DNA of 64,000 nt from NCBI GenBank assembly GCA_041567895.1, contig JBFGAX010000002.1, positions 26,152-90,151 of the forward strand, written 5' to 3'. The translations under genes and the position numbers were made by a program. The notes under the pieces are model-generated. The model ran no database searches. It had not been told where the DNA came from and was given only the letters and a program-made list of their open reading frames with translations. This document shows, one piece after another, positions 21,339 to 64,000 of the stretch (positions are counted from its first letter, which is position 1; each line of letters starts with the position of its first letter). This DNA is from Acidimicrobiia bacterium (GTDB lineage: Bacteria > Actinomycetota > Acidimicrobiia > Spongiisociales > SHLN01).

Positions 21339-21568
21339 GAATTGGTTCCCTGGTGCCAGCCGCCGGGAAGTGTACACCCTGAGTAACGGATTCGCCACTG
21401 AAAGTGTTCGACGTCTCTGTTGTCGGGGGGGTCGGTGCTCACACGGGTTGAGCGCCTAGCCTGACCTCCAATTGGAGGCGTCCGAGCGCCTGGTGGGCTC
21501 CTCGGTCTTCAAAACCGATGAAGGGTTCTATGAGCCCTTGGCGGGTTCGATTCCCGTCCGCCTCCGCT

Positions 21569-40769: not shown

Positions 40770-43121
40770 TCACACAGGGATGTAAACCACGGCAATCTCG
40801 TCTACTGAGATGTCGTTCTTTTCCAGGCCCACCTCGACTGTCTCGAGCTCGGCGGCGACGTCCTCCCAGCGGTCCTCGATTTCGGCGACCGCTTCCATCA
40901 GATCCTGTTCCAGATCGAGCACTTCTGCCTCCTTGTCCGCCAGGTTCGACTGCGCGGTCCGCAGCCGTTCGGCCGTACGTTGACTCTGGCCTCGTCGGCG
41001 AGCTGCTCCCGACATCGAACGCTTTCGTCGACCTCCGAGGACCATGCCGAGCAAGTCAGATGCTCCCGATACCAGCTCTTCACGCTTGCGCGTATCGAGG
41101 TCGATCTCCAATTCCTGCATTCTTCGATAGTTGGTGGTGAGTTGATCTTTGGCTCGGTCGATTTTGGTTTCGAAACGCTCCTTGACCTTTGCGATCTCGG
41201 CGTCTGCTGCTTCCTCCGCAGCGCTATCGAGACGTTGTTGAAACTCGTCTTCAGTCTCACCGATTCTCGAATACAGCTTGAGTGTGGGGTTGAACATCAC
41301 AGACACTTCTGCATGCCGATAGAGATGTTCCTTGATCGCCGATTCGGCCGACGTGAAGAATTGGGCAGAATCCAGGGGAGCCTCTGACAACACGTATGTC
41401 GCACCTTCCGGAGGTTCATTGCGAAAGTCGCGTTCGTCGTAGTCGACAGCGACGGCATCTGCAGGATCGAATTGCTCGGTCAAAGGAAAGAAGATCGCTT
41501 CCCATTCCTGGTTGTGGTCCAGATCGGCACGCGTTTCGTCGAAGGTCAGATGAACCCGAACTGCGAGGGCAGGCTGCAGACGCCTGCTTTGCGGGTTGGC
41601 GTTGACTTCGCCCGCCCACGGTGCGGCAGGGTCCAGGTAGTACACGGGCACTCGCGCGATTTTGGGAGCGACGCTGGTTTCGTCATCATCGAGTGTTCGT
41701 GTTTCAGGGGCCACGGTTCCTTGCGGAATCGTCTCTATCGATTGCCGATCATCTGCTGTCAGGACACTGATCTGATCTCTCGTGAGTGGGCCGCGCAAGT
41801 AGGACATCGCCCACCGGGTCGAAAAAACCGACGGAGCGGATTCGTGCGTGTTGTGCAGCAGGAATTGGCGCTTGCCGAGGCCTGACACCATGGCGTTGAT
41901 CGCCTTGATGTCGGTTCCGCCGGCTGCCGACTCGAGGGCCTCCAAAATGCGGGCTTTGTCTCGCTCGGTCTGCAGGCGCCCGATCATCCAGGTTCCGGTA
42001 TTGGACATTGCCTTGTAATCGAGGTCAACCGGATTTTGCGTGCTCAGCACCAGACCAACGCCGAAAGCACGTGCCTGCTTCAGCATTGTCAGGATCGGCT
42101 TTTTCGATGGTGGAGACGCCGTGGGGGGTGCGAAACCGAAAACCTCATCCATGTATATGAGCGCGCGGAGGTCGGAGGCGCCAGACAGGCTGCGCATCCA
42201 GCTCACGACCTTGGACAAAAGGAGGGTAACAACGAATTGCCGTTCGTCATCGTTGAGGTGCGCCAGGTACACGACTGCTGCCCGCGGCTTATCGCCGTCG
42301 TAGAGCATCGATTCGATATCCAGGGGAGGTCCCGTCAACCACGACGCAAATGTCGGCGACGCGACAACCCCATTGAGCTGCATGGCGAGTGCTGTGCGGT
42401 CCTTCTCGGGAAAGAACGCGTCTACCTCGAAGACGCCCAGTTTTCGCAATGGCGGGTTCTGAACCTGACCTATCAGGGTCGCCAGGTCGAGGTCCTGGCC
42501 GTCGCGCCAGGCCTTGGCAACGATATTCGACAACAGGATGTGTTCTCTTCCCGAGACGGGATCCGAATCGACGCCGGCGAGAGTGAGGAGCGACGCGACG
42601 AGGCCGTCGATCTCACCGAGAATGGCTTCGCTCTCGGTCTCCCAACTCAAGTCCGGGGCCCGCAGCGATCCGAGGATGTTCACCGGAATACCGGCGCTCG
42701 AGCCCGGCGTATAAATCGAAACCGGGATGTCGCTGAGCTGTTTGATCCGATCGTGGTCAGGATCCCACGAGCCGACACCCGCTTTCCACATGTCGGATGT
42801 CTTCGCAGCCAGTTCGGAGGTGGTGATGTCATCCTGGCGCGCCTCGTCTTTACTCACCCAGGGTTCGAAGTCGGACGGCTGAAATGCTGGGAAGGTCAGC
42901 GCGAGATTCCCCATGTCGCCCTTGGGGTCGATAGCCAGAACGGGCACGCCGGACAACAGTGCCTCCTCGAGAAGAATGACGCCAAGTCCAGTTTTGCCCG
43001 AGCCTGTCATGCCGACAATGACCCCGTGGGTCGTGAGGTCTGATCGGTCGTACGCGACGCGTTCGCCGGTCGGCTCACCGTCAACCGGATTGATGATGTC
43101 TCCAAGATAAAAGTCGCTCAT
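40770..43121 (-). CDS. HerA-superfamily P-loop NTPase, DUF853 (YjgR-like), with long C-terminal coiled-coil extension
   Basis: Walker A GMTGSGKTG, conserved IDPKGD, Walker B LIYMDEVFGF, STQNPVDLD motif. Start at MSDFYLG (complement ATG 43119-43121), because the longer ORF is a shadow of manA. Confidence 0.7.
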   Translation of the reverse strand: MSDFYLGDIINPVDGEPTGERVAYDRSDLTTHGVIVGMTGSGKTGLGVILLEEALLSGVPVLAIDPKGDMGNLALTFPAFQPSDFEPWVSKDEARQDDITTSELAAKTSDMWKAGVGSWDPDHDRIKQLSDIPVSIYTPGSSAGIPVNILGSLRAPDLSWETESEAILGEIDGLVASLLTLAGVDSDPVSGREHILLSNIVAKAWRDGQDLDLATLIGQVQNPPLRKLGVFEVDAFFPEKDRTALAMQLNGVVASPTFASWLTGPPLDIESMLYDGDKPRAAVVYLAHLNDDERQFVVTLLLSKVVSWMRSLSGASDLRALIYMDEVFGFAPPTASPPSKKPILTMLKQARAFGVGLVLSTQNPVDLDYKAMSNTGTWMIGRLQTERDKARILEALESAAGGTDIKAINAMVSGLGKRQFLLHNTHESAPSVFSTRWAMSYLRGPLTRDQISVLTADDRQSIETIPQGTVAPETRTLDDDETSVAPKIARVPVYYLDPAAPWAGEVNANPQSRRLQPALAVRVHLTFDETRADLDHNQEWEAIFFPLTEQFDPADAVAVDYDERDFRNEPPEGATYVLSEAPLDSAQFFTSAESAIKEHLYRHAEVSVMFNPTLKLYSRIGETEDEFQQRLDSAAEEAADAEIAKVKERFETKIDRAKDQLTTNYRRMQELEIDLDTRKREELVSGASDLLGMVLGGRRKRSMSGAARRRGQSQRTAERLRTAQSNLADKEAEVLDLEQDLMEAVAEIEDRWEDVAAELETVEVGLEKNDISVDEIAVVYIPV

Positions 43122-43302
43122 GGAGAGCGATTGTAAGGTCTCATGAGGGGACACCCCGACCTCGGTGCTTGAATGGGATCCTCGATCTGAAAGGGTCATC
43201 GAAGAACACAGTGAAGAACACAGGTACGCATTCAGGAAGAATGACGGGCATGCCGAATTCGTTGGAGTTCGGTAACGCAAGCCGGTATGTGGGTAGCAGC
43301 GG

Positions 43303-44343
43303 TTGGATATAGACACCACATCCGGTACCGGAGATCTCGATCGACCATATCCGTTGCTTTTTGAACCGATCCTCGTCGACAAAGTCTGGGGCGGCAATCG
43401 ATTGGAGCGGCTGGGCAAGGAGCTGCCGCCCGGGGTGGCAGTCGGTGAATCCTGGGAACTCGCAGACCTCGAAGTCACCAGTCGTGGTGCGGCAGCGGGG
43501 TCGATCATCGGCAATGGCGCACTGGCAGGCAGGCCGATTCGCGAAGCGATCCATCGGTGGGGAGACGCCCTGATGGGTGGTGTGGAACTCGCCGAATGGG
43601 GAGGTTTCCCGGCGTTGGTGAAGTACCTGGATGCCACCCAGCATTTGTCGGTTCAGGTCCACCCCGATGCCGACTATGCGCTGCTCCATGAGGGAGCCGA
43701 TCTCAAATCTGAATGCTGGTATGTGATCGAGGCAGAAGCGGGTGCCACCTTGTATCTAGGTCTGGCCGAAGGCGTTGAGCCTTCTGATTTGATCGAGAGA
43801 GCTCGCACGGGGTCGGTGATCGATCTCCTTCAGGCTCACGAGGCCATTCCCGGGACGTGGTACAACGTCCCGAGCGGCACCGTTCACGCTCTAGGCGCCG
43901 GCGTCCTGGTTGCTGAAATACAGACGGCTTCCGACACGACCTTCCGCGTCTACGACTGGGCAGAAGAATACGGTCGAAGTGGACGAACCCTCCATCTCGA
44001 GGAAGCCGCGCAGTCCATACGCACGGACAGGCCCCCGCCGCCCATGGCACTGGATCCGGTCGCACGCGACGGCGTGGTTGTACGTACGCCCTTCTTCACC
44101 GTGTCCGAATTCCGGATGGAAGCCAGAGAAACCATCGAACCGACCGCGGCCGATGCGGGGTGCAGGATCCTCATGGCCACCTCCGGCTCGGTCGAGGTGC
44201 GAACAGTCGGAAACGACCCTGTGACGCTCTCGTTGGGTGATACGTGTCTCGTGCCAGCCAATTGTCTCTCGGGGCTCGAAGTCGAAGGCATCGAGGACAC
44301 CGTGTTGATCGTCGTCAGGTTCAACGACGGCGATGATCGCTGA
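43303..44343 (+). CDS. manA: Mannose-6-phosphate isomerase, class I
   Basis: YPLLFEPILVDKVWGG N-terminal PMI type I signature and cupin core with His/Glu metal ligands; TTG start. Confidence 0.8.
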   Translation: MDIDTTSGTGDLDRPYPLLFEPILVDKVWGGNRLERLGKELPPGVAVGESWELADLEVTSRGAAAGSIIGNGALAGRPIREAIHRWGDALMGGVELAEWGGFPALVKYLDATQHLSVQVHPDADYALLHEGADLKSECWYVIEAEAGATLYLGLAEGVEPSDLIERARTGSVIDLLQAHEAIPGTWYNVPSGTVHALGAGVLVAEIQTASDTTFRVYDWAEEYGRSGRTLHLEEAAQSIRTDRPPPPMALDPVARDGVVVRTPFFTVSEFRMEARETIEPTAADAGCRILMATSGSVEVRTVGNDPVTLSLGDTCLVPANCLSGLEVEGIEDTVLIVVRFNDGDDR

Positions 44344-51643: not shown

Positions 51644-52189
51644 TTGCTGAACCGGAAGGCGCAGCGGATCTCGCTCGACGGTACCATCCGGTCGATGGCT
51701 CTCGTTCTCCTCGCACTGTCCATCTCGCTTGGCAGCGCTTTTCCTGCGGTCTCCGCCGATGCGACTCTTGAAGGATCACAGCTGTCAATCGAGTTGACGG
51801 TAACCCTCGGCGAGGCGCTGACGGCTACCACCGTTGTCGCCCACATCGGGAGCGCGAGTAATCAGTCGACATTCCAGCTCGGACCCGAAGGAGACAACGT
51901 CTATTCGGGCAAACTATCGAGCGCCGCCAGAAACCAGTTTGTGATCATCGAGGCGATCCTCCAGGACGGATCGGTCGTCTTCTCGCGAGCCGCCACGCTT
52001 GCCGAACTCGGCGTTGACGAGACGCTCCTTGGTACGGCCGCTGCTACGAGCGACGCGACCGATGATGGATCCCCGCCAGAAACGGACAGGTCCGGCCTGC
52101 TGGTCCCCGCACTGCTCGTGCTGGCTGCATCGATCGCGATCGTCATGACCGTGCGGGTGTTCCGACGTGGAGTACAGTCTTCGGAATGA
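51644..52189 (+). CDS. Hypothetical secreted, C-terminally anchored protein
   Basis: Signal-like N-terminus (MALVLLALSISLGSAFPAVSA) and C-terminal TM; start uncertain. Confidence 0.4.
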   Translation: MLNRKAQRISLDGTIRSMALVLLALSISLGSAFPAVSADATLEGSQLSIELTVTLGEALTATTVVAHIGSASNQSTFQLGPEGDNVYSGKLSSAARNQFVIIEAILQDGSVVFSRAATLAELGVDETLLGTAAATSDATDDGSPPETDRSGLLVPALLVLAASIAIVMTVRVFRRGVQSSE

Positions 52190-52797
52190 ACGCGCAGGGT
52201 TGGGACGATCGATATCGTGATTCCGAATTCGTATGGTCGATGGGCCCAAATGCCACTGTTCAGAAGTACCTGCACGGGTTGGCTCCCGGCTCCGCGCTCG
52301 ATCTGGGAGCGGGGGAGTGCCGGAACGCGGTATGGCTCGCCTCGCAGGGCTGGAACGTCACCGCGGTTGATTTCTCGAGGATCGGCCTCGACAAGGGCCG
52401 CAAGTTGGCGGCGAACAAGGGCGTGGACGTCACGTTCGTGCTTGCCGACGTGGAGACATTCGATATGGGTACCCGGGCCTGGGATCTCGTATTGGTCTCG
52501 TACCTCCAAATCCCGAACCCGCAACGGCTCGATGTGTTGGAGAGGGCGGCCGAAGCGGTGGCACCGGACGGTCTCTTGATGGTCATCGCCCATGACCGGT
52601 CGAACGTCTCTGATGGGTGGGGCGGGCCTCCTGATGAGGAGGTCTGCTACACCGTAGAGGAGACGGTTTCGGTCCTGCGAGGCTTCGACGTGCAGATCGC
52701 AGGCATCATCGAACGAGAAGTCGATACCGAATCCGGACCTCGCGTCGCTCTCGACACCCTCGTGGTTGCCCACCGGGCCACGACCGGGATCAGCTGA
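52186..52797 (+). CDS. Class I SAM-dependent methyltransferase
   Basis: Motif I ALDLGAGECRNAVWLA and post-I acidic residue; TehB-like size. Confidence 0.75.
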   Translation: MNAQGWDDRYRDSEFVWSMGPNATVQKYLHGLAPGSALDLGAGECRNAVWLASQGWNVTAVDFSRIGLDKGRKLAANKGVDVTFVLADVETFDMGTRAWDLVLVSYLQIPNPQRLDVLERAAEAVAPDGLLMVIAHDRSNVSDGWGGPPDEEVCYTVEETVSVLRGFDVQIAGIIEREVDTESGPRVALDTLVVAHRATTGIS

Positions 52798-53584
52798 GTC
52801 GTTTCCGGCTTCTCAGCACGATGGCGAGGCCGATAAGGGCCGCCGAACCCAGCACAGCGGCGGTGGACACCAACGGCGATGGCCTGTTCACATCCCCCAG
52901 CCTGGTACGCATGTTGACAGGCAGCTTGAACTCCTTGATGGGCCAGCCTTCGGCTTCGGCCTTGGCCCGCAGATCTCTGTCCGGATTCACCGCAACCGGG
53001 TTGCCCACCGCCTCCATCATCGGGACGTCGGTAAAAGAGTCTGAATAGGCGAAGCTACGCGAGAGGTCGATGTCTCCTTCTACGGCCAGCTTGTGAATAG
53101 CGTCAGCCTTGGTTGGGCCATATGCGTAGAAATCGATACCACCGCTGTAGAGACCGTCACGGTCGATTGCCAGTTCGGTGGCGATGACATCGGTCACGCC
53201 CAGGTAGCGCCCGAGCGGACGAACGATCTCGATCGGGCTGCTCGAGACGATCACCACTCTGTCACCCTCGCGGTGGTGTTCGTCGATGAGAAACAGTGCC
53301 TCGGCATATACCAGAGGTTCCACCACTTCGTCGAGTGTCTCGCTCACAATGCGCTCGACCGTGTCACGGTCCCACCCTTTGACAAGCGTGGTCAACGACT
53401 CCCGGATTCGTTCCATCTGGTCATGGCTCGCGCCGAACAAGACATAAAAGGTCTGGGCCACCCCCAGCTTGAGAAGGGTCGAGAGATTGAGGAATCCGGC
53501 CTGGTATAGCTGCCTGCGGTAAGCGAGGGTGGACGATTTGGCGATGATGGTTTTGTCGAGATCGAAGAAGGCTGCGGCTTGCAT
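52790..53584 (-). CDS. HAD-IB family hydrolase
   Basis: AAFFDLDKTII motif I, HAD-IB cap, C-terminal TM; RBS GGAGGG before ATG (complement 53582-53584). Confidence 0.75.
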   Translation of the reverse strand: MQAAAFFDLDKTIIAKSSTLAYRRQLYQAGFLNLSTLLKLGVAQTFYVLFGASHDQMERIRESLTTLVKGWDRDTVERIVSETLDEVVEPLVYAEALFLIDEHHREGDRVVIVSSSPIEIVRPLGRYLGVTDVIATELAIDRDGLYSGGIDFYAYGPTKADAIHKLAVEGDIDLSRSFAYSDSFTDVPMMEAVGNPVAVNPDRDLRAKAEAEGWPIKEFKLPVNMRTRLGDVNRPSPLVSTAAVLGSAALIGLAIVLRSRKRLS

Positions 53585-53687
53585 CCCTCCAAGGTAGCCC
53601 TTTGGCGTCTGTTCGGGTGTCCCAATATTTCGCAGCGTACGTCTTGATCTCTCCCGGGCGAACTGGCACCTTGACCCGAGACCGGAG

Positions 53688-54239
53688 GTGCAGATGCAGG
53701 TAGTAGCCACCTGGGCTCCGGAGGACGGAATATTGGGCGCTCTTGCGCCGCTTGGTTTGGCGAACGCCCGCCCGACCTGTCTCGTCGTCGATCTCGATCC
53801 TGCCGGCCCCCAATACCCGGGAGAACTCAGTCTCGCCGACCTCGTCGAACGAGGTCCGACGAAAGCCGAGTTGTCGCCCGTTCGCTCCGGGGTGTGTGTG
53901 ATGAAGAACGGCGGTGCCGGCGTAGTCGAGAGCATCGAAGTGATTCATGCCATGTCGTTGTCGTGGCCACACGTCGTTGTGCGATTGCCTGCCGCAGGCC
54001 TGGACGTTCCGTGGCAATCGGTCAAGGTGCGTCCATTGTTGCCCGGCAATCTGTTCGGCCGCCTGGAACAGCACACGGTCTATCAGCGCAGCTACTGGCC
54101 GGTTCCGGCTCCCGATCGAAGCATTGTCCTTCCGGTTCCCAGACCGGCGGTGGTGGCGGCGCTCCTCGCGGGCAACAGGGTCAGGCGTTCGCCGTGGGTC
54201 AAGGCCTGGGGACCGGTTTGGGATGACTCATGGGGGTAG
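53688..54239 (+). CDS. CpaE-like degenerate ParA-family protein (helicase/secretion neighbourhood type), short
   Basis: ParA/MinD-like fold signature without intact Walker A; position immediately upstream of tadA. Confidence 0.4.
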   Translation: MQMQVVATWAPEDGILGALAPLGLANARPTCLVVDLDPAGPQYPGELSLADLVERGPTKAELSPVRSGVCVMKNGGAGVVESIEVIHAMSLSWPHVVVRLPAAGLDVPWQSVKVRPLLPGNLFGRLEQHTVYQRSYWPVPAPDRSIVLPVPRPAVVAALLAGNRVRRSPWVKAWGPVWDDSWG

Positions 54240-55291
54240 TCGAGCGCTTGAGTCGCGAGCTCTTGAGTCGAGACGTCGCGCTCGATCGCGAATCGCTGCG
54301 TGGGGAGCTCGAGTCGCTCATCCCCGAGCATGCACCTCTCGCAAGACCGGCCGACATGGAAGCCGTGCTAGATGGTCTGGTGGGCCTTGGGCCGGTAGAA
54401 CACTTCCTCGCCGACACCGGGGTCACCGACATCCTGGTGAACAGATACGACGATGTTTGGGTGGAACGTGCGGGGCATCTCGAGCACACGCCGGTCAGAT
54501 TCTCGAGCCCCGATGCCGTGCTGGCGGCGATCGAACGCGTCCTAGCGCCGTCCGGCCTTCGCCTGGACCGCGCGTCACCCTCTGTGGATGCCCGCCTGGC
54601 GGACGGCTCACGTCTCCACGCGACGCTGCCACCGATCTCCGTTGACGGACCGGCTTTTGCCCTCCGTCGCTTTGTCCCGAAGGCTCGAACGCTCAGCGAG
54701 CTCGAGGCGGGCGGTTCTCTCGATCGTCAGGCTTCCGGATATCTCGCAGACGCGGTTCGGAACCGCCGGAACATCGTCGTGACGGGCGGCACCGGATCCG
54801 GAAAAACCACCCTCCTCAATGTGTTGTCAGGTGAGATTCCCTCGTCCCAGCGGACGATCACCGTGGAAGACTCCGCAGAGCTTTCGCTGCAAGGTCACAC
54901 GCTGCGACTGGAGTCGAGGCCTGCCAATGCTGAAGGAGCGGGCCAGGTGACGGTGCAGCAGTTGGTACGAAACGCGCTCCGGCTGAGGCCGGATCGAATC
55001 ATCGTCGGTGAGGTTCGGGGTCCGGAGGCTCTCGACATGATCTCGGCGATGAATACGGGACACGACGGATCGATGAGCACGGTGCATGCCAACGGACCTG
55101 ACGAAGCGCTGTGGCGGATCGAGACGCTCGCACTTTCGGGTGAGCGAAGAGTGTCCGAGCTCGCTGTGCACCGTCAACTTCGATCTGCGATCCACGTGTT
55201 GGTCCACACCGCGCGCGTCACGGGTGGACGACAGGTTGCGAGCATCCACGAAGTCGATCGGCATGGCCTGCGGGAGGTGTGGCGGTGCTGA
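54230..55291 (+). CDS. tadA: Tad/Flp pilus assembly ATPase (CpaF/TadA, type II/IV secretion NTPase)
   Basis: Walker A GGTGSGKTT, Asp box, Walker B IIVGEVRG, His box (GHDGSMSTVHAN). Confidence 0.85.
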   Translation: MGVVERLSRELLSRDVALDRESLRGELESLIPEHAPLARPADMEAVLDGLVGLGPVEHFLADTGVTDILVNRYDDVWVERAGHLEHTPVRFSSPDAVLAAIERVLAPSGLRLDRASPSVDARLADGSRLHATLPPISVDGPAFALRRFVPKARTLSELEAGGSLDRQASGYLADAVRNRRNIVVTGGTGSGKTTLLNVLSGEIPSSQRTITVEDSAELSLQGHTLRLESRPANAEGAGQVTVQQLVRNALRLRPDRIIVGEVRGPEALDMISAMNTGHDGSMSTVHANGPDEALWRIETLALSGERRVSELAVHRQLRSAIHVLVHTARVTGGRQVASIHEVDRHGLREVWRC

Positions 55292-55941
55292 TCGTCGCTG
55301 GAGTGCTGGTGGCCGAGCGTGTTCCGTGGATGCTGGTGTTGGCTGCTTTCGGGATAGCTCTTCATCCGTTGATAGCGCTTCTCATCATCGTGTTCTACGT
55401 CGTTTGGCATTGGACACGGCGAGACCCCAAACCATCTCCTGCAATGGAGGCTGCGTTCTATCAGCGACTCCTGAGCGAACTGGAGTCAGGTTCGAGCGTA
55501 AGAAGCGGTCTTGCAGCTGCGATCGCAGCGGAGCATGATCTCGACCTGGCGGATGTGGCCAGACGACTGCATGCAGGCTCACATCTGGAATATGCCCTAG
55601 AGCCGCTCGAGCACCGGCTGCCCCATACGGGCATGCTGGCGAGAGCGGCTTTGCTACTCGGGTCCGAAACCGGGGGCGAGATCCGTTCCTCGATTGCGGA
55701 CCTGGGAGCCATGGCCAGAGACTTGATCGAGGTTGAGAGGCAAGTTGGTGTCCACACGGCGCAGGCGCGCCTCTCTGCTCTGGTGGTGGGTGTTTTGCCA
55801 TTGGTTGCAGCCATCGGTCTGATGGCAGCACGGGGTGGGCTTCCCGACCCTGGTATCGGCCGAGCGCTGGTTGTGGCGGGACTCGGTTTTCAAATCGCCG
55901 GTCTCGGATTCGTTGCGCTCATCTTGCGAGGATCGGCATGA
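55279..55941 (+). CDS. tadB: Tad pilus assembly membrane protein TadB-like (T2SS-F family)
   Basis: GTG start with GGGAGG RBS; TM-cytoplasmic-TM topology typical of TadB. Confidence 0.6.
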   Translation: MAVLIVAGVLVAERVPWMLVLAAFGIALHPLIALLIIVFYVVWHWTRRDPKPSPAMEAAFYQRLLSELESGSSVRSGLAAAIAAEHDLDLADVARRLHAGSHLEYALEPLEHRLPHTGMLARAALLLGSETGGEIRSSIADLGAMARDLIEVERQVGVHTAQARLSALVVGVLPLVAAIGLMAARGGLPDPGIGRALVVAGLGFQIAGLGFVALILRGSA

Positions 55942-56555
55942 TGGCGATCGGCGCCGCGACGTTTTCCGCGCTGGTGGTTTCGAGGTATGTGTCGGGGAGG
56001 GCACTCGAGGTCTTCGTTCTGGTCTCTGCGGCCTTGTGGTGGCCCCACTTGACGATTCCCGTTGTCACGAGCATGGAGGTGCTCCGCAGGGCCAGGGGGC
56101 TCCGGCAAACCCGGCAGGGGACCATTGCCGCCGACCGGGAGCTCCTGCTGCTGAGCCAATCGGTTGGCATTGGATTGCGGGCGGGCCTTGCTCCGATACC
56201 CGCCCTGCATCGGGCGGCAGATTTGCTCACGTCAGATCTCGGTGCGGAGGTCCAGCGAGTTCTCCGGCACGGGGCTCTGGTCGGTGCAGGCCCGGCGCTT
56301 TCGGCAGGCGCGGGACGCGCCGGCGTCCTCTTCAGGATGATCGGACGCGCGGTTCAGACCGGCTCTCCACTCGCTGCGGCGGTGGACGCGACGACGGCCG
56401 AGATCGTGCGAGATCGACTCGCGACGAGATTGACAACGGTCCGCAAGCTGCCCGTGAGGCTGATGATCCCCCTCACGCTTTGCATACTCCCCGGTTTCGT
56501 GTTGATGACCCTGGGACCGGTCATTGATCAAGCAGTAAAGCAGTTCTCGCTCTGA
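55938..56555 (+). CDS. tadC: Tad pilus assembly membrane protein TadC-like
   Basis: Similar topology to tadB; start overlaps the tadB stop. Confidence 0.55.
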   Translation: MMAIGAATFSALVVSRYVSGRALEVFVLVSAALWWPHLTIPVVTSMEVLRRARGLRQTRQGTIAADRELLLLSQSVGIGLRAGLAPIPALHRAADLLTSDLGAEVQRVLRHGALVGAGPALSAGAGRAGVLFRMIGRAVQTGSPLAAAVDATTAEIVRDRLATRLTTVRKLPVRLMIPLTLCILPGFVLMTLGPVIDQAVKQFSL

Positions 56556-56569
56556 AGAAAGGAAAACGC

Positions 56570-56764
56570 ATGCACCAACGTACGCACGTAAACATGGCGG
56601 TCGACCACCCGGACACCGGACAGGCAACGGCCGAGTATGCCCTGGTGATTCTGGCCGCAGCGCTCATCGCGGTGGCTTTGATGACATGGGCGACCGGAGG
56701 GGGCGGCATTACGACATTGTTCCAAGCGGTGCTCGACAGAGTCATCGGCCTGGTGGGGGGGTGA
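56570..56764 (+). CDS. flp: Flp-family pilin / DUF4244-type pilin-like protein
   Basis: 64 aa; G-QATAEY prepilin-peptidase-like motif followed by a hydrophobic helix; RBS AAGGAAAA. Confidence 0.55.
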   Translation: MHQRTHVNMAVDHPDTGQATAEYALVILAAALIAVALMTWATGGGGITTLFQAVLDRVIGLVGG

Positions 56765-57126
56765 TGACCGATCGAGGTTCGGTAGTTGTTGAAGCCGCGA
56801 TCATCATCCCACTCTTGCTCCTCGTCTTCCTTGCCGGCGTCGAGCTGTTCGGTGTCGCCCGAACGCAGGTGGAAGTGACAGCCGCGGCTCGGGAGGGAGC
56901 CCGGCAGGCCGCAACCAGCCCCGACCCGGCGAGAGCCGTACAGTCGGTTCGAGCCGCGCTGGGACCGGCTACGAGATCGGATGCTGCCGTCAGCGTGCGC
57001 AGGCCGACAGTTGTGGGTGCCATCGCAACCGTGTCGGTCCGTGTCGAATATCGATTCGTCTCGTTTCTCTGGGGCGGTGTGCGCATTCCGCTACGTGGGT
57101 CGGCCTCCATGCGGACCGAGCGATGA
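56765..57126 (+). CDS. TadE-like pilus assembly protein
   Basis: N-terminal VVEAAIIIPLLLLV TadE/TadG signature; ATG immediately follows the flp stop. Confidence 0.6.
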
Positions 57127-57584
57127 CTGCAGACGACCACGGGGTGGCGGGCATCGTTGCCCTCATGCTGGTCGCGGCAGCAGCGGTGTCCGGGCTTGCT
57201 TTCTTCACCGGTAGTCAGCTCATCGTTGCCCGTGTCGAGGCCGCAAACGCGGCGGATGCTGCTGCTCTGGCAGCAGCTCCCGTCACCTTCCGCGCGTTTG
57301 GCGCCCGCGGCTCCCCTCGTGCGGAAGCCGCTCGCCTTGCCGAGGCAAACGGAGCACGGCTGAAGCGTTGTTTTTGCACCGTCGATCACAGCATGCGAAG
57401 GAGGATCGTCGAAGTCGAAGTGGTCGTTGCTCGGAACTTATGGCTGCTTGGCACAGTGTCGGTACATGGAAGTAGCAGGGCTGAATTTGATCCGTCCCTC
57501 CTCTTGGAACCGGGCACGAATCCCCCGAAATCTGACGCAAACCCTCTCATGTTTTTCGGGCAAATACCGATGGATTCGTTATGA
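57123..57584 (+). CDS. TadE-like pilus assembly protein (Rv3655c-like)
   Basis: N-terminal hydrophobic TadE-like segment; overlaps the preceding gene by 4 nt. Confidence 0.5.
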   Translation: MTADDHGVAGIVALMLVAAAAVSGLAFFTGSQLIVARVEAANAADAAALAAAPVTFRAFGARGSPRAEAARLAEANGARLKRCFCTVDHSMRRRIVEVEVVVARNLWLLGTVSVHGSSRAEFDPSLLLEPGTNPPKSDANPLMFFGQIPMDSL

Positions 57585-57862
57585 CGCTGGCTCATAACAT
57601 CTTCTACCGGGCCTACACACTCGTTGAGTCTGCAGTCGATTATGAATCGGCGGTTGAGGACCTCATCACCCTCGCACGCGGCAATCGCCATACGCTCGAG
57701 GCAGCCCGGGAATTGATGGATGAACTCGCGGTTGTCGGCGATCCTGGAGAGCGGTTGGATGTGGCTGCCGTCGTCGGATTCGATGAAGGAGTAGCCGATT
57801 TCGAGGCTTACCAGCGCAGCGCCGTCCGAACGCTCTTGAACCGGGCCGTGGAAGCGGCCTAA
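57581..57862 (+). CDS. Hypothetical small protein, translationally coupled to the tad operon
   Basis: ATGA overlap with the preceding tadE-like gene; 93 aa; no recognisable homology. Confidence 0.35.
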   Translation: MTLAHNIFYRAYTLVESAVDYESAVEDLITLARGNRHTLEAARELMDELAVVGDPGERLDVAAVVGFDEGVADFEAYQRSAVRTLLNRAVEAA

Positions 57863-58251
57863 ACCGGTTCCTCTTTCAGGTGCATCGCCGTGACCGAGGT
57901 CACATGATGGTCGATCAAACCATCGGACAGTGTCATCATCTCTACCAGGTCCGCTGCCCCGAAAGACGTGTGGAGCACCGCCTCGAGCAACACGAGATCC
58001 TCGGCTTCCTCGGATTGTTCGGCAGAGAAGGTCACGACCTTCCCGAGGTTTTCCAGATACTCACGCCACCATGCTTCGACTGCTTGTCGTCCTCTGGCAA
58101 CCTGATCGATACGCATCATGACCGGCTCGGGACCATACAAACTCATGATCGTATCCAGATCGGCGAGAGCGACTGCGCGCAGGTATCGGTCAAGCACCCC
58201 GATATGGTGGTGGTCTCGTCGTCGAAATCGTGGGAAATCGACCCGGGACAT
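57859..58251 (-). CDS. NTF2-like (SnoaL/DUF4440-like) protein
   Basis: 130 aa; alpha+beta cone pattern with conserved W/Y residues (AVEAWWREYLENLG). Confidence 0.4.
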   Translation of the reverse strand: MSRVDFPRFRRRDHHHIGVLDRYLRAVALADLDTIMSLYGPEPVMMRIDQVARGRQAVEAWWREYLENLGKVVTFSAEQSEEAEDLVLLEAVLHTSFGAADLVEMMTLSDGLIDHHVTSVTAMHLKEEPV

Positions 58252-58380
58252 TCAACCGGAGTTTTGACCTCCGAAACGGACCCCGGATGAAATCGGCCCG
58301 TTCAGATTGTGGGGCAGTCCGAGCGGGCAGCGATGGCGCGGCAGATACAATGGCACTGCCTAAGAAAGGACCGAATCAGG

Positions 58381-58665
58381 ATGAGCTTCCTCGACAAAGC
58401 ACGAGATGCAATGGGAGATATGGCCGACAAGGTGGCCGATGGGGTTGAAAAAGTGACCGACTTCGTCGACGAAAAGACGGATGGAAAGTTTTCAGAACAG
58501 CTCGACAAGGTCGACGACATGGCCGAAAAGCTGGCCGACAAGATCGACGGCGACGAGATGGAAGCCGCCAAGGACGCTGCTGGTGATGCAGTCGATTCTG
58601 CAAAAGAAGCCGCAGGCGAAATGATGGACGCAGCCGAGGATGCTGCCGAGGATGCCGTCGAGTAG
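58381..58665 (+). CDS. Small Rv0909-like protein (antitoxin-like family), paralog 2
   Basis: MSFLDKARDAMGDMADKV...FVDEKTDGKFSEQLDKVDD resembles the conserved FVDEKTGGKY core of mycobacterial Rv0909-type proteins. Confidence 0.55.
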   Translation: MSFLDKARDAMGDMADKVADGVEKVTDFVDEKTDGKFSEQLDKVDDMAEKLADKIDGDEMEAAKDAAGDAVDSAKEAAGEMMDAAEDAAEDAVE

Positions 58666-58690
58666 CGCGAACGTGACCTGCTGGTCAACG

Positions 58691-58728
58691 AACAATGCCC
58701 CGGGTTACCCGGGGCATTGTTCTGTTGT
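58691..58728 (+). terminator. Intrinsic terminator
   Basis: AACAATGCCCCGGG-tta-CCCGGGGCATTGTT, a perfect 14-bp stem, followed by CTGTTGT. Confidence 0.6.
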
Positions 58729-58754
58729 AGGTACGGTTAACGGGAGGAGGCACT

Positions 58755-59192
58755 GTGGATGAGTTCTTGTCTGCGGCGATCAACGAGGCATTGGTCGGTG
58801 CAGAGGAGGGGGGTATTCCGATCGGTTCCGTTCTGGTGATTGACGGCGAAATCGTGGGACGTGGCCACAACCGTCGGGTCCAGAAGGCGAGTCCAGTGTT
58901 ACACGCCGAGATGGACTGTCTCGAACATGCCGGGCGCCTGTCTGCGGCCGATTATCGGCGGTCGGTCCTGTATTCGACATTGTCTCCCTGTGACATGTGT
59001 AGCGGGGCAGTTTTGCTGTACGACATACCGCGTGTCGTCATCGGCGAGAACCGAACGTTTCGAGGGCCCGAGGAGTACGTTGCATCGCGTGGTGTCGTAC
59101 TCCAAATCGTCAACGATGAGACGTGCATGCGCCTGATGAGCGATTTCATCGAGAACAATCCGGAGCTGTGGAACGAAGATATCGGGGTTTGA
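58755..59192 (+). CDS. Cytosine deaminase of the CDA fold (yeast Fcy1-like) / nucleoside deaminase
   Basis: HAE...PCxxC zinc motif (LHAEMDCL, LSPCDMCSGA) and C-terminal FIENNPELWNEDIG closely paralleling Fcy1 (FIDERPQDWFEDIGE); GTG start with GGGAGGAGG RBS. Confidence 0.75.
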   Translation: MDEFLSAAINEALVGAEEGGIPIGSVLVIDGEIVGRGHNRRVQKASPVLHAEMDCLEHAGRLSAADYRRSVLYSTLSPCDMCSGAVLLYDIPRVVIGENRTFRGPEEYVASRGVVLQIVNDETCMRLMSDFIENNPELWNEDIGV

Positions 59193-59203
59193 ATGAACGC
59201 CGT

Positions 59204-61468
59204 CTAGTCAGAGTCGACACCTGCGGCTCGCAGAAGTGCCGCAGCTCCAGCTTTGTCGAGCGGGTCGTTGAAGTTCCCACACTTTGGCGACTGTACGCAT
59301 GAAGGACATCCGCTCACACAAGGGCATTCATTGATGACCCGAAGCGTGGCAAGCAGGAGGTCGGCCGCCCGATCGAAACCAATCGGGGCTATACCGGATC
59401 CGCCGGCGTGACCGTCGTAGATGAACCATCCAGCACCGGCTTCGAGATCGGGGTGAAACGGGGTTGATATTCCTCCGATGTCCCAGCGATCGCAAATGGC
59501 GAAGAGCGGCATCATCCCGATGGCCGCGTGTTCGGCGGCATGAAGAGTTCCCGGTATCTCACGGGGTCCGATCCCTGCCTCGTCGAACAGTGCATCCGGA
59601 ATTGTGAACCAGAAGGCTTGAGTCTCGTAGGTCTGCGGTGGCAGTTCGAGGTACTCCATACCGAGGTTCTCGCCACCGCGTCGCGATTTGCGCTTGAAAC
59701 CGGTGATCTGGGATTCGACTTGCACCCGGCCGTGTGCCAGGCCGACGGCTCCCAGCGGACGATGTTCGGTGACCTCTAGAACTTCGATCCACTTGTCCTC
59801 TTTGGGTTCTGTGTAATAGCCGAGGGTCTCTTCGCTGACGCGAGCCTCCGATCGATCGAGGTCGAGTTTGTGTACGAGATAGCTCGACCCCTGGTGAAGG
59901 TACACGGCTCCTTCATGAACCTGACCGTAGGCCTGGGTTCGCCCAACGGTGCCGAGCAATTCACCGCGACGGCCGTCAATGATCGAAATCGGTGGTCCAC
60001 CCGACGAGCGGAGGCCGATGCCGGACGCGGGTGACGCTCCTCGACCCCAGATGAGCCCTCCGGCTCCGAGCCGCAGGCGCCCTTGAGCCACGAGTCGTGT
60101 GCCTGCCTCCTCGAGGTGGTCACCAAAGAAGCGCCTGTCAGCCGGCTCTAGCGGAAGCTCATAAGCCGCACAGGTGAGATGACCGTCGAGAATCAGAGGG
60201 TTGGTGGGGTTGATAACGCCTGCCTCCGGTGCTCTGGAAAACAGTTGCTCGGGATGATGCATGAAGTACTGGTCGAGTGCGTCGGAGCCGCCGACCAGAA
60301 CGGCAATGGATTCGGCCCGAGAACGCCCGGCACGCCCCGCCTGCTGTCGCAGAGATGCGATCGTTCCGGGATACGTCGTCAGGATCGCCGCCTCGAGGCC
60401 TCCGATATCGATGCCAAGCTCGAGCGCGTTTGTCGTCACGACGCCAATCAGCTCTCCCGCAAACAATCGCCGTTCGGTTTCTCGCCGGTCGGCCGCCTTG
60501 TAGCCTCCTCGATAAGGTGCCACGCGGTCGGCGAGCGCCGATGGCAGCCGATCTCTCACCCTGGCATAGATGAGCTCGGTTGCCTTTCGGCTCCTGGCAA
60601 ACACGATCGTGGGATGCCCCTGCTCGACGATTCGAGCCATGACTTCCGCTGATTCGGCAACCGGGCTGCCGCGATCGCCGCTTTCGGGGTCATCGGCGTC
60701 GAGCGGAGGGTTCCACAACACCCAGTGTTTGCGACCCGTCGGGGAATCGTCGCGGTCGACAACCGCCACTTCATCACCGATCAGCCCGGAAGCCAGATCA
60801 TCCGGATTGCCGATGGTGGCCGAGGTGAACACGAACGTCGGCTGAGATCCATAGTGATCGGCGATGCGCCGGAGCCTTCGCAGAGTCATGGAAACATGGG
60901 TTCCGAACACTCCCCGCAACATGTGCATCTCATCTACAACGACAAAGCGAAGGCGGTGGAAAAAGTCGGCCCATCGGGCATGGTTGGGCAGAATGCCGAT
61001 GTGCAACATGTCCGGGTTGGTGAGCAGCACATTGGCATGCTTGCGCACCCAGGTGCGTTGAGATCTATCGGTGTCCCCGTCGTAGGTCGCAGCGACCAGA
61101 TTCTTCTGGTCGAAGATTGCAAAACCCCTCAGCTGATCTTGAGCGAGGGCTTTGGTCGGGTACATGGCGATTGCCGTCGATTTCGGTTCCTCCTCAATGG
61201 CCTCGGCGATCGGAATCTGGTAGGCAAGTGATTTTCCTGAGGCCGTCCCGGCAACGACGACGGTGTGGTTTCCGCCCCGCACCAGCTCAACGGCCTCAGC
61301 CTGGTGACCGTACAGCCCTGAGATCTGCAGAGACGCCAGCCGGGCGCGCACTCCCGGCGACAGGTCGATGTCGGCATAGACCGGCGAGCGCTCGGGGGTG
61401 ATCTCGATGTGGGCCAATCGGCCGGCGACGTCGGGGTCGTCGCGCCACTCCTTGATCAGCCGGTCCAT
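59204..61468 (-). CDS. DEAD/DEAH-box helicase with C-terminal DUF1998 Zn-binding domain (helicase/secretion-neighbourhood type; MrfA/YprA-like)
   Basis: Motif I AGTASGKS, motif II VVDEMH, motifs III (SAT) and VI (QAGRAGR); C-terminal CPCVSGCPSC...C cysteine cluster. Start chosen at MDRLIKEW (complement 61466-61468). Confidence 0.85.
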   Translation of the reverse strand: MDRLIKEWRDDPDVAGRLAHIEITPERSPVYADIDLSPGVRARLASLQISGLYGHQAEAVELVRGGNHTVVVAGTASGKSLAYQIPIAEAIEEEPKSTAIAMYPTKALAQDQLRGFAIFDQKNLVAATYDGDTDRSQRTWVRKHANVLLTNPDMLHIGILPNHARWADFFHRLRFVVVDEMHMLRGVFGTHVSMTLRRLRRIADHYGSQPTFVFTSATIGNPDDLASGLIGDEVAVVDRDDSPTGRKHWVLWNPPLDADDPESGDRGSPVAESAEVMARIVEQGHPTIVFARSRKATELIYARVRDRLPSALADRVAPYRGGYKAADRRETERRLFAGELIGVVTTNALELGIDIGGLEAAILTTYPGTIASLRQQAGRAGRSRAESIAVLVGGSDALDQYFMHHPEQLFSRAPEAGVINPTNPLILDGHLTCAAYELPLEPADRRFFGDHLEEAGTRLVAQGRLRLGAGGLIWGRGASPASGIGLRSSGGPPISIIDGRRGELLGTVGRTQAYGQVHEGAVYLHQGSSYLVHKLDLDRSEARVSEETLGYYTEPKEDKWIEVLEVTEHRPLGAVGLAHGRVQVESQITGFKRKSRRGGENLGMEYLELPPQTYETQAFWFTIPDALFDEAGIGPREIPGTLHAAEHAAIGMMPLFAICDRWDIGGISTPFHPDLEAGAGWFIYDGHAGGSGIAPIGFDRAADLLLATLRVINECPCVSGCPSCVQSPKCGNFNDPLDKAGAAALLRAAGVDSD

Positions 61469-61650
61469 CCGCACGAGGGTAGGCCACGGGTCGGACAATT
61501 GGAGCAGTGCTCGACAGAACTTCACTGACGCGAGATCCGGTAGCCTTGACCGGCCATGGCTCACGTCGAACCTCCAATCAAGCGACGCCCCACCTGGGTA
61601 CAGTCCGATCGCCCGGTACCGACGCTGTTCGTCAGGCCGGTGCGACGCTT

Positions 61651-62920
61651 CATGGACCTCGAAGCGTCGTCCGGCGTCGTGTTGCTCATCATGGCTGTCG
61701 TGGCGCTGATCTGGGCGAATTCGGCGTTCGCAGATTCCTACTTCGGATTGCTCGATTACCACGTGGTTGTGGAGTTGGGTGACCTGCACATCCTGGACGA
61801 ATCGATCAAGCATCTGATCAATGATGGACTGATGGTGTTGTTCTTCTTCGTGGTAGGCATGGAGATCAAGCGAGAGCTGGTCATCGGTGAGCTGAACGAT
61901 GCCAAAACAGCCGCCCTCCCGGCCATTGCCGCACTCGGGGGGATGGTCGTGCCCGCCCTGATCTACGTGGCGTTTGCGGCCGGGATCGAAGACGCCGGAT
62001 CGGGTTGGGGGATTCCCATGGCAACCGACATCGCGTTTTCAGTGGGCATCGTTGCGTTGCTCGGGAGCAGGGTCCCTCTCACGGCCAAGCTCTTTTTGCT
62101 CGCGTTGGCGATCGTCGATGACATCGGCGCCATAGCGGTCATCGCCATTTTCTATACGAGCGACCTTGCTTTCGGTTGGCTCTTGGCAGCAATCGGGATG
62201 CTGGCGCTCATCTACGTGCTCTCACGCACGAGCGTGCGGCTCACGGGGGTCTACTGGGTATTGGGGATTCTGGCGTGGTATTTCATGTTGGAGAGCGGAG
62301 TGCACGCAACGCTGGCGGGCGTGGCGATCGGTCTGATAACACCGGCAAGGCCTTTCTATTCGAGCCGTGAGTACGATGCGCTGGCGAGGCGCACGATCGA
62401 GTTGTATTCGGCTGACGAAACGACTCAGGACGCCCGCGAAGAGGTCGATTTCGAAGTCCTGCAGCTCGCGAAAGTTGCTCGCGATTCCGTTGCCCCGCTG
62501 ACGAGGCTGGAGCATGCACTGGCGCCCTGGACGTCGTTTTTCGTCGTTCCACTTTTTGCACTTGCGAACGCCGGGATCAGCTTCGATGGCGTTGACATCG
62601 GAGAGGCGATAACGAGTGGGGTGGCGCTCGGTGTGGCGCTCGGCCTGGTGTTGGGCAAGACATTCGGAGTGACGTTGTTTGCATGGCTGGCTGTGAAAGC
62701 TGGAATCGGCAGCATGCCGCGGGGTGCCAACTGGCGGATGATGACCGGACTCGCGATGCTGGCCGGCGTCGGGTTCACGGTATCGCTGTTCATCACTGAA
62801 CTGGCGTTCGAAGCCCAATCGCCTCTCGTCGATCTGGCCAAGATCGGAATTTTCATCGGATCCGCCGTTGCCGGGGTAGGTGGCTATCTGTTGCTTCGCA
62901 TGCGATCGAGAACGGCCTGA
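61651..62920 (+). CDS. nhaA: Na+/H+ antiporter NhaA
   Basis: NhaA N-terminus (FxxxExxSGxxLL...ALxWANS) and conserved DD motif region (LALAIVDDIGAI). ATG 61651 chosen; ORF opens at 61556. Confidence 0.85.
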
Positions 62921-63007
62921 CCGAACCAATTTCTTCGCGAGCTGCCTCGACGATCGCCCTATACTCGCCGAGATTTTTCCCCCCTTAGGAGCAGGTACGT
63001 GGATCCG

Positions 63008-64000
63008 GATATTTGGGTTTGGCTGGCCGGCGCATCAGCGATAGCGGCGTTGGTGCTCGCAACCGTGTTCGCCAGGCAGGTAGTTGCTGCTGACCCTGGC
63101 AACGTGCGCATGGTCGAGATCGGTGATGCCATCAGGGAGGGCGCCATGGCGTTCCTCAAGCGTGAATACACCTGGATCTCGGGGTTTGTCGTGATCATGA
63201 CCATCCTGATTCTCACGCTCCTCGACAACGGTGGGGCGAAGGCGGTGGCCTATGTCTTCGGTGCATTGCTGTCGGCATTTGCCGGTTTCGTCGGCATGAG
63301 GATTGCCACGGCCGCCAACAACCGGACCGCCGAAGCCGCCCGCATTGGCGGGGTGCAGGCTGCTCTGCCTCTCGCTTTTCGTGGTGGGGCGGTCATGGGA
63401 TTCTCGGTTGCAGGCCTCGGCTTGTTCGGATTCGTGCTGATGTTCCTGCTCTGGGTCAACTGGGTTGAGATCGACTTGCCTTTCGATGTCGTGGCGGCCA
63501 TGGGCCTCGGAGCTTCCTCGATTGCCCTCTTCGCACGCGTGGGCGGTGGCATCTATACCAAGGCGGCTGACGTTGGCGCCGACCTGGTTGGCAAGGTCGA
63601 AGCCGGTATTCCGGAAGACGACCCTCGCAATCCAGCAACGATTGCGGACAACGTCGGCGACAACGTTGGCGACGTGGCGGGTATGGGCGCCGACCTTTTC
63701 GAGAGCTACGTAGGTTCGCTGGTTGCTCCGATCGTGTTCGCAGCCGTCGCGTTTCAGGGCCAGGAATTCCTTCCGGCAGCCATAGCGTTCCCGCTCGCGA
63801 TTGCCGCGGTTGGCATGGTTGCCTCGATAGTCGGAGCGTTCCTCGTCAAGCCGAGAAGCGCCGACGACCTGGCCGCGGCACTTCACCGCGGTACCAACAT
63901 GGCGATGTTGCTCGCTGCCGTTGCGGCGCTGGTCGTTGCATTCCTGCTCTTCGGTGACACTGCCGGGGTCGATAATCCAATCGGACTGTGGCTTGCGGTC
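63008..64000 (+). CDS. hppA: Membrane-bound H+-translocating pyrophosphatase (HppA), N-terminal part; runs off the window end
   Basis: GTG 63008 with TAGGAGCAGG RBS. Translation VDPDIWVWLAGASAIAALVL...IGDAIREGAMAFLKREY...GVQAALPLAFRGGAVMG matches V-PPase helices 1-5. No stop inside the window. Confidence 0.85.

Follow-up and report, generated by a model that had tools for sequence, protein, structure and literature searches.

The TadZ/CpaE proteins of Aggregatibacter, Caulobacter and Eubacterium rectale combine an atypical receiver domain with an atypical ATPase domain and serve in pilus positioning; they are thought to position Tad machines by a MinD-like, nucleotide-dependent mechanism. Proteins of the mycobacterial Rv3660c type are about 350 amino acids (aa) long. 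In the TIGRFAMs descriptions, the pairing of a helicase with secretion genes defines the families TIGR03815 to TIGR03819, and Rv3661, the divergent upstream neighbour in Mycobacterium tuberculosis, is presumably HAD-like. TadZ/CpaE is a polar MinD-like protein that is needed for assembly of the apparatus (PMC11407121). In M. tuberculosis, the operon runs tadZ(Rv3660c)-tadA-tadB-tadC-flp-tadE-tadF (PMC9531140), and Rv3660c retains a Walker A motif and has 112 additional residues at its N-terminus (residues 1-112) (PMC10482377). The small RNA (sRNA) 6C/B11 lies between Rv3660c and Rv3661 (PMC3384566), and SftH/Rv3649 is a 3'-5' DNA helicase with a DUF1998 domain (PMC3424565). Here we compare these systems with a locus in a 64,000-nucleotide stretch of contig JBFGAX010000002.1 (the window), which homology identifies as a Tad/Flp (type IVc) pilus operon on the chromosome of an uncultured Acidimicrobiia bacterium. 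In the position of TadZ it encodes a protein of 181 aa, which we call Z181. Z181 is one of a family of conserved, unnamed proteins about 180 aa long, and is not a broken CpaE/TadZ; it is predicted to have a MinD/ParA-type fold with a reduced core.

Eight open reading frames (ORFs) follow one another on the forward strand between 53694 and 57862, with stops and starts that overlap or nearly abut, and they form one tightly coupled operon in the order Z181, tadA, tadB, tadC, flp, tadE, tadF (Rv3654c-like) and a 93-aa ORF (Table 1). Z181 and tadA overlap by 10 nt, and tadA and tadB meet at GTGCTGA. The sequence ATGA joins tadB to tadC, tadE to tadF, and tadF to the 93-aa ORF. The 14-nt gap between tadC and flp holds an AGGAAA box, and at TGATG the start of tadE and the stop codon of flp have one base in common. 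An earlier note on this DNA had listed these genes and described them as overlapping or coupled; each was present at, or a few bases from, the coordinates given there, and reading of the junctions confirmed the coupled Tad gene order. Gene identities were taken from Pfam and NCBIfam profile searches and from an ORF listing of the window. The gene boundaries that we adopted agree with the gene calls of L086, a contig from the Acidimicrobiia series of metagenome-assembled genomes (MAGs; GCA_041633215.1) that is 99.86% identical to window positions 52127-64000; the starts of the HAD-IB gene, tadB and the MT0933-family gene follow its calls.

The pilus genes matched their families with varying strength. 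The best NCBIfam match of tadA, TIGR03819 (heli_sec_ATPase), reached 316.4 bits where the cutoff is 373.15, and the only NCBIfam match of tadF was TIGR03816 (the Rv3654c family), at 43.2 bits against a cutoff of 50.95. PF00482 is assigned to the tadB and tadC orthologues in three related loci (L002, L003 and L004), and size and position also fit these two genes. The Flp_Fap match to flp was sub-threshold (17.2 bits), and the N-terminus of the product has a processing site, DTG/QATAEY (prepilin motif G/QATAEY, the slash marking the cut).

By homology, the locus is a Tad/Flp system similar to the mycobacterial Rv3649-Rv3661 region. From the TadZ-position gene to tadF, its genes follow the M. tuberculosis order (PMC9531140). 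As in the M. tuberculosis locus, there is a DUF1998/MZB helicase nearby, the pilin is of the DUF4244 type, tadE is of the Rv3655c type, and the Rv3654c family gives the best match of the second minor pilin. In contrast to Rv3660c, Z181 fails TIGR03815 and lacks both the Walker A motif and the N-terminal domain of about 112 aa (PMC10482377). Also in contrast to M. tuberculosis, tadA and tadF of the window score below cutoff, other genes lie between the operon and the helicase, and a Rfam search (E≤5) found no 6C/B11 sRNA in the upstream spacer (53585-53693). The assignment of this locus to the actinobacterial helicase/secretion neighbourhood, made in the earlier note, thus stands in part: the layout, the helicase (TIGR03817) and the Rv3655c model (NF041390) agree with it, whereas the best matches to TIGR03819 and TIGR03816 fall below cutoff and TIGR03815 has no match. 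Among the neighbourhood models, only those for the helicase and for the Rv3655c-type protein are formally passed.

Z181 most likely starts at ATG 53694, because this codon follows a Shine-Dalgarno box (GGAGG, 53684-53688) at a 5-nt spacing and because the same start is used in L086. The start listed previously, GTG 53688, overlaps the Shine-Dalgarno box, and the size of 183 aa that it implied is corrected to 181 aa; the closest homologue is also 181 aa long. Among 5.8 billion proteins we found 136 Z181 homologues, nearly all of 179-186 aa. All lack a name other than "hypothetical protein," and no Pfam domain is recorded for the 120 listed. When the family profile was run exhaustively against 1.84 billion (1.84e9) cluster representatives, only 131 clusters came back, with no longer, P-loop-bearing relatives or bridges among them; the long matches P0188, P0228, P0233 and P0239 result from frameshifted or chimeric calls or assemblies. 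Homologues in more than 100 lineages, with pairwise identities of 38-69% to Z181 of the window, share start and length, and an alignment of 40 family sequences (A1) has 20 invariant columns, including D13, G14, D35, D37, G40, N74, G75, G76, R99 and Q133. Z181 itself had no Pfam or NCBIfam match even at E≤10, TIGR03815 or any ParA/MinD model matched 0 of the 40 family members, and the family profile had 0 matches among PDB sequences at E≤10.

A scan of 185,579 species-representative genomes located 115 related loci. We kept 80 of them; almost all come from Acidimicrobiia or Actinomycetota MAGs, and a few stand under other bin labels. Synteny was counted by tblastn with the window proteins, and the denominators given here and below are the loci with enough flank. 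In all 78 such loci, tadA lies directly downstream of the Z181 homologue. The family was found almost only in MAGs titled Acidimicrobiia or Actinomycetota. When TadA was used in tblastn against plasmid records in search of an actinobacterial TIGR03815 protein, the top matches were only proteobacterial CpaF loci.

The AlphaFold2 model of Z181, made with alignment A1, was compact and very confident, with a pLDDT (predicted local distance difference test) of 93.5 and a pTM (predicted template modelling score) of 0.89. In a Foldseek search of the PDB, the 50 best matches listed were P-loop nucleoside triphosphatases (NTPases) of the MinD/ParA kind (FleN, FlhG, MinD, BcsQ, HypB, Soj, NifH, ParF and SegA) or close relatives (CapB, Cfd1 and MMAA), with E values down to 6.5e-5, best query-normalised TM-scores of 0.50-0.62, and sequence identities of 10-17%. 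The secondary-structure elements follow the order of MinD, with beta1, a loop, alpha1, beta2 ("VVDLD") and onward. Z181 begins straight with beta1 of the MinD-like core, at residue 5. It has no receiver-like N-terminal domain such as that of TadZ, and there is no room for one upstream because the spacer to the next gene is 109 bp. Instead of a deviant Walker A motif, whose consensus is xKGGxxK[ST], the beta1-alpha1 loop consists of five residues, A/T-P-E-D-G, of which one is a glycine and two are acidic; Lys, Ser and Thr are absent. The strand at the presumed Walker B position reads VV(L/V)RLP, with the invariant R99 instead of an aspartate. An hhalign comparison of the family with E. coli MinD (MinD sequence verified against 3Q9L) was insignificant (E 0.09, 18 columns); its sole segment pairs LGLA..ALVVDLDP with TGLAQKGKKTVVIDFDIG in the alpha1-beta2-switch I region, and this register sets D13-G14 of Z181 at K16-T17 of MinD. 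As a predicted fold, therefore, the ParA-like protein without a P-loop that the earlier note had described is borne out.

Table 1. Genes of the pilus operon, its upstream neighbour, the helicase and the genes between them (window coordinates).
Gene	Product	Position	Strand	Basis
HAD-IB gene	HAD-IB family hydrolase, 264 aa	52790..53584	-	TIGR01490 181.8 bits (cutoff 98.3); PF12710
Z181	TadZ/CpaE-position protein, 181 aa	53694..54239	+	Shine-Dalgarno box and ATG; tadA adjacency; predicted fold (AlphaFold2, Foldseek)
tadA	TadA/CpaF-type pilus assembly ATPase, 353 aa	54230..55291	+	PF00437 185.9 bits
tadB	TadB-like platform protein, 218 aa	55285..55941	+	PF00482 (T2SSF) 19.9 bits, below gathering cutoff 25.2
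tadC	TadC-like platform protein, 205 aa	55938..56555	+	PF00482 22.8 bits, below gathering cutoff 25.2
flp	Flp-type prepilin, 64 aa	56570..56764	+	PF14029 (DUF4244) 30.8 bits, above 27
tadE	Minor pilin of Rv3655c type, 120 aa	56764..57126	+	NF041390 (TadE_Rv3655c) 41.8, above 40; PF07811 39.1 bits
tadF	Rv3654c-like TadE/G-type minor pilin, 153 aa	57123..57584	+	PF13400 29.1, above 22.3
93-aa ORF	Acidic, all-helical protein	57581..57862	+	Homologues; ratio of nonsynonymous to synonymous rates (dN/dS); AlphaFold2 model
SnoaL gene	SnoaL/NTF2-like protein, 130 aa	57859..58251	-	PF12680 28.8, above 27; PF13474 28.5 bits
MT0933-like gene	MT0933/Rv0909-family small protein, 94 aa	58381..58665	+	PF14013 (MT0933_antitox) 45 bits
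Deaminase gene	Yeast Fcy1-type cytosine deaminase, 145 aa	58755..59192	+	E 1.4e-43 to PDB 1ysb; PF00383 72.2 bits
Helicase gene	SftH/MrfA/Hrq1-type superfamily 2 (SF2) DExH DNA helicase	59204..61468	-	TIGR03817 875.5 bits (cutoff 874.1)

Similar to TadZ/CpaE of Aggregatibacter, Caulobacter and E. rectale, Z181 sits ahead of tadA and has a predicted fold of the MinD/ParA type. In contrast to these proteins, it is half their size, lacks the receiver-like domain and the glycine-rich loop, has Arg in place of the Walker B Asp, and is invisible to sequence profiles. Its tendency to a deviant Walker A recalls the E. rectale TadZ, which lacks both lysines according to the citation in PMC10482377. The best structural matches are to the MinD/FleN/FlhG/BcsQ proteins of the SIMIBI class (8pb9, 5j1j, 4rz2, 4v02 and 6yay; E 6.5e-5 to 9e-4, TM-score 0.51-0.61). 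Z181 shares with MinD-type ATPases a beta2 strand that resembles switch I, and it differs from them in having no ATP-binding motifs and in length, its 181 aa being some 60-90 residues short of the targets of 240-270 residues. The tad clusters of Micrococcus luteus are likewise those of an actinobacterial monoderm Tad system without a canonical TadZ (PMC4322843). Whereas M. luteus is reported to be without any TadZ ortholog (PMC4322843), the locus in the window keeps a dedicated, conserved gene for a protein of predicted MinD fold.

The C-terminus of Z181 carries a stripe of tryptophans (W170, W174, W178 and W182; family consensus RWxRAWRxVW), which we considered as a MinD-like membrane-targeting helix. 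The helical hydrophobic moment of the stripe is high in the family as a whole, with a median of 0.63 and a top-3 window in 25 of 40 members, but reaches only 0.38 in the protein of the window. The helices of the stripe are modelled at a pLDDT of about 93-95, which suggests that they pack on the domain. Membrane targeting by the stripe is therefore a weak possibility.

With a probability of roughly 0.7, we read the locus as an ordinary Tad operon in a helicase/secretion layout, in which Z181 is a nucleotide-independent adaptor, the helicase is a separate gene, and the genes of the spacer were inserted. By homology, the operon would encode a monoderm Tad pilus machine. TadA would be the motor that drives assembly on the TadB/TadC platform, as in other monoderm Tad systems; the Flp prepilin would be cut by a prepilin peptidase and then form the filament, which TadE and TadF would prime. 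Z181 would stand in the TadZ/CpaE slot of this machine as a pseudo-ATPase adaptor, made stoichiometrically with TadA via the translational coupling at their 10-nt overlap. Its role would be to dock TadA at the platform or membrane, or to position the motor there. Because both phosphate-binding motifs are lost while the reduced core is kept, we infer that Z181 has lost nucleotide binding and acts as an adaptor. The family is then a new, probably nucleotide-independent, TadZ-like variant in a known neighbourhood.

It is important to note the points that weigh against this reading. For four of the pilus genes (tadA, tadB, tadC and tadF), the best model is matched at a score under its curated cutoff. 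A search for a prepilin peptidase (TadV/CpaA) found none in the locus, nor in 30 larger ORFs elsewhere in the window, which in 1-50 kb were those of at least 230 aa and so above the size of a TadV-type peptidase; the peptidase is often unlinked in Actinobacteria (PMC4322843). Only the predicted structure and the gene position point to homology of Z181 with TadZ/MinD, and profiles find nothing. The putative placing of R99 at Walker B and of D13-G14 at the P-loop follows from the order of secondary-structure elements and from the insignificant hhalign segment (E 0.09). Finally, E. rectale TadZ, as cited in PMC10482377, keeps ATPase activity without both Walker A lysines, so that, as far as this citation goes, the loss of canonical residues is no proof of lost nucleotide binding.

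The last of these points bears on whether Z181 might still bind nucleotide or act as an NTPase, with a remodelled pocket and a nucleotide-dependent switch like that of MinD, FleN and FlhG. By secondary-structure order, the sites of the MinD nucleotide pocket are occupied in Z181 by D13-G14, D35-L36-D37-x-x-G40-P41-x-Y43-P44-G45, N74-G75-G76 and R99, and these positions are invariant save P41, Y43, P44 and G45, which are at least 90% conserved. Such conservation suggests that selection on the pocket continues and leaves room for a remodelled ligand site, to which the E. rectale protein, within the limits of its citation, would be an analogy. Against this stand the beta1-alpha1 loop, which offers no Lys, Ser or Thr, the replacement of the Mg-coordinating Walker B Asp by an invariant Arg, and the failure of P-loop NTPase profiles to detect any of the 40 members. 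We consider an active Z181 unlikely and prefer the nucleotide-independent adaptor.

The locus is well explained and unsurprising in outline, yet it holds an unannotated candidate family of pseudo-ATPases. A whole bacterial class appears to have swapped TadZ for a half-size, P-loop-free protein that keeps the fold and whose gene is always translationally coupled to tadA. If Z181 works without nucleotide, it would be a natural minimal positioning or docking module, showing which part of TadZ is needed for pilus assembly, and the ParA/MinD family would gain a clear pseudo-ATPase. Neither Pfam nor NCBIfam has a model for the Z181 family, and a profile made from A1 would improve the annotation of Acidimicrobiia genomes.

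The helicase gene converges with the pilus operon at a distance of 1.6 kb. The earlier note had placed a convergent DUF1998 helicase there, and the TIGR03817 and MZB matches support this; its label "DEAH" does not hold, as motif II reads DEMH (DExH). The protein is 754 aa long, or 773 aa from an alternative GTG start at 61525. Its domains are DEAD, Helicase_C, WHD_HRQ1 and a C-terminal Cys4 MZB (= DUF1998, 73.1 bits), and its motifs include GTASGKS, DEMH, QQAGRAGR and CPCVSGCPSC. The SF2 motor is thus followed by a DUF1998 domain with a CxCx3Cx2C cluster, the pattern described for SftH (PMC3424565).

Conserved adjacency of the helicase to the pilus genes, on which the earlier note had let its claim of a neighbourhood depend, is real without being universal. 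A TIGR03817-like helicase lies within 10 kb downstream in 19 of 50 loci (38%), convergent every time, a share that greatly exceeds chance expectation for a single-copy gene. In several loci (for example L047, L052 and L074), the helicase directly adjoins the last pilin gene. In a neighbour-joining tree of TadA, the helicase-adjacent loci fall on several deep branches, and one large clade has none. This distribution fits ancestral linkage with loss, or relocation. In our preferred reading, the helicase would be the product of a separate gene for a 3'-5' DNA helicase, and its adjacency an ancestral synteny kept in some lineages; direct coupling of helicase and pilus is, we infer, absent. The literature that we searched contains essentially nothing on the helicase/secretion neighbourhood, and no experimental support either way. 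The synteny count is a first quantitative statement on this little-studied neighbourhood beyond the well-known Actinomycetes.

The same adjacency could mean that helicase and pilus belong to a single functional DNA-handling module, in which the pilus serves uptake or transfer and the SftH-type helicase processes the incoming or outgoing strand. The helicase is always convergent where it is adjacent, on several deep TadA branches, and the same pairing presumably defines TIGR03815 to TIGR03819 in other Actinobacteria. M. luteus, which is also without TadZ, depends on Tad pili for natural transformation (PMC4322843), and this Flp-dependent transformation makes a DNA-uptake role of the present locus possible by analogy. 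However, in 31 of the 50 loci the 10 kb downstream contain no helicase. Where it is adjacent, the helicase is transcribed as a unit of its own, towards the pilus genes, and the spacer between them varies from 0.4 to 5 kb and carries genes of unrelated kinds. A scan of 30 larger ORFs of the window (in 1-50 kb, those of at least 230 aa) showed no comEA, comEC or other competence gene, and relatives of SftH/MrfA are known as repair-type helicases (PMC3424565). We therefore think a common module improbable. A bolder combination would make pilus and helicase a DNA uptake or transfer apparatus, and Z181 the first known protein of ParA/MinD fold to have given up nucleotide binding altogether and yet be an obligatory assembly factor, docking TadA without an ATP switch; taken as a whole, we hold this to be very doubtful.

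That Z181 is a decaying remnant of a full-length CpaE/TadZ, a truncated or frameshifted pseudogene, is effectively refuted: of the "truncated CpaE" in the earlier note, the half length relative to Rv3660c-type proteins stands, as do the lack of a P-loop and of any family model match, but the 109 bp up to the divergent HAD gene leave no room upstream, GGAGG precedes the ATG, start, length and invariant columns are shared across lineages, the longer homologues show clear signs of frameshift or chimeric assembly, the compact model is very confident, and tadA adjacency is complete.

Between the operon and the helicase lie genes whose identities (NTF2-like, Rv0909-like and Fcy1-type), proposed in the earlier note, were upheld by the profile matches. 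Together with the 93-aa ORF, the SnoaL, MT0933-like and deaminase genes were found only in the closest relatives, L004, L008 and L086, and these four genes would be lineage-specific insertions into a variable spacer. The 93-aa ORF has only 4 homologues, of 67-90% identity. Synonymous sites are saturated, the proportion of nonsynonymous differences (pN) is about 0.2, and the dN/dS of about 0.1 indicates a real gene. AlphaFold2 models its product as a soluble bundle of five helices (pLDDT 80), with no fold match in the PDB (best E 1.8) and no Pfam or NCBIfam family match. We compared the product with Rv3654c/Rv3655c, as the earlier note had proposed, and rejected it as a pseudopilin of that type: there is no profile match and no hydrophobic N-terminus, and the helical model is soluble. 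Its coupling to tadF, by ATGA in the window, is not a general trait. In L004 (by gene calls) and in L008 (by an estimate from tblastn offsets), a gap of about 0.3-0.4 kb separates the two genes, and the translational coupling is therefore lineage-specific.

The SnoaL gene is kept on the same strand in L004 and L008. Its stop codon (TAG, 57859-57861, reverse strand) overlaps that of the 93-aa ORF (TAA, 57860-57862, forward strand), so that there is no space for a terminator between these convergent genes. Over this stretch, the gene caller of L086 has instead a 127-aa ORF on the forward strand, which has no Pfam match. The deaminase also matches the yeast structures 1uaq and 1ox7, in an alignment of residues 6-144 that includes the C-terminal W(N/F)EDIG motif, and its gene adjoins the helicase in the lineage of the window and also in L004 and L008. 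A scan for sigma-70 promoters over 53400-59400 found 0 promoters, and terminator-like sites in the same interval occurred only at the level expected by chance.

Upstream, the HAD-IB gene is divergent from the pilus operon across the 109-bp spacer (53585-53693), and its product ends in a hydrophobic anchor segment (…STAAVLGSAALIGLAIVLRSRKRLS). A divergent HAD homologue lies within 600 bp upstream of the Z181 homologue in 55 of 74 loci, and the hydrolase therefore seems to be a conserved member of the neighbourhood.

In one pair of related loci, L001 and L002 (both of homologue P0065), two metagenome contigs show no difference until the Z181 homologue and then diverge. Beyond this point, L001 has a DDE transposase gene where L002 has tadA-tadB-tadC-flp, and L001 looks like a disruption or rearrangement of the tad operon, associated with an insertion sequence, in one population.

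Elsewhere in the window, an ORF of 955 aa on the reverse strand (40770-43637) has weak matches to HerA/DUF87 ATPases, confined to residues ~199-246. It is followed on the same strand by an ORF of 313 aa without a Pfam family (39792-40733), and the two may be an uncharacterised HerA-like NTPase pair. At 21474-21565 on the forward strand, Rfam model RF01852 (72.9 bits, E 5e-13) identifies a selenocysteine tRNA, which begins shortly before the listed start of a MoeA ORF (21518-22831) and extends over it; this tRNA implies that selenoproteins are used by this Acidimicrobiia genome.

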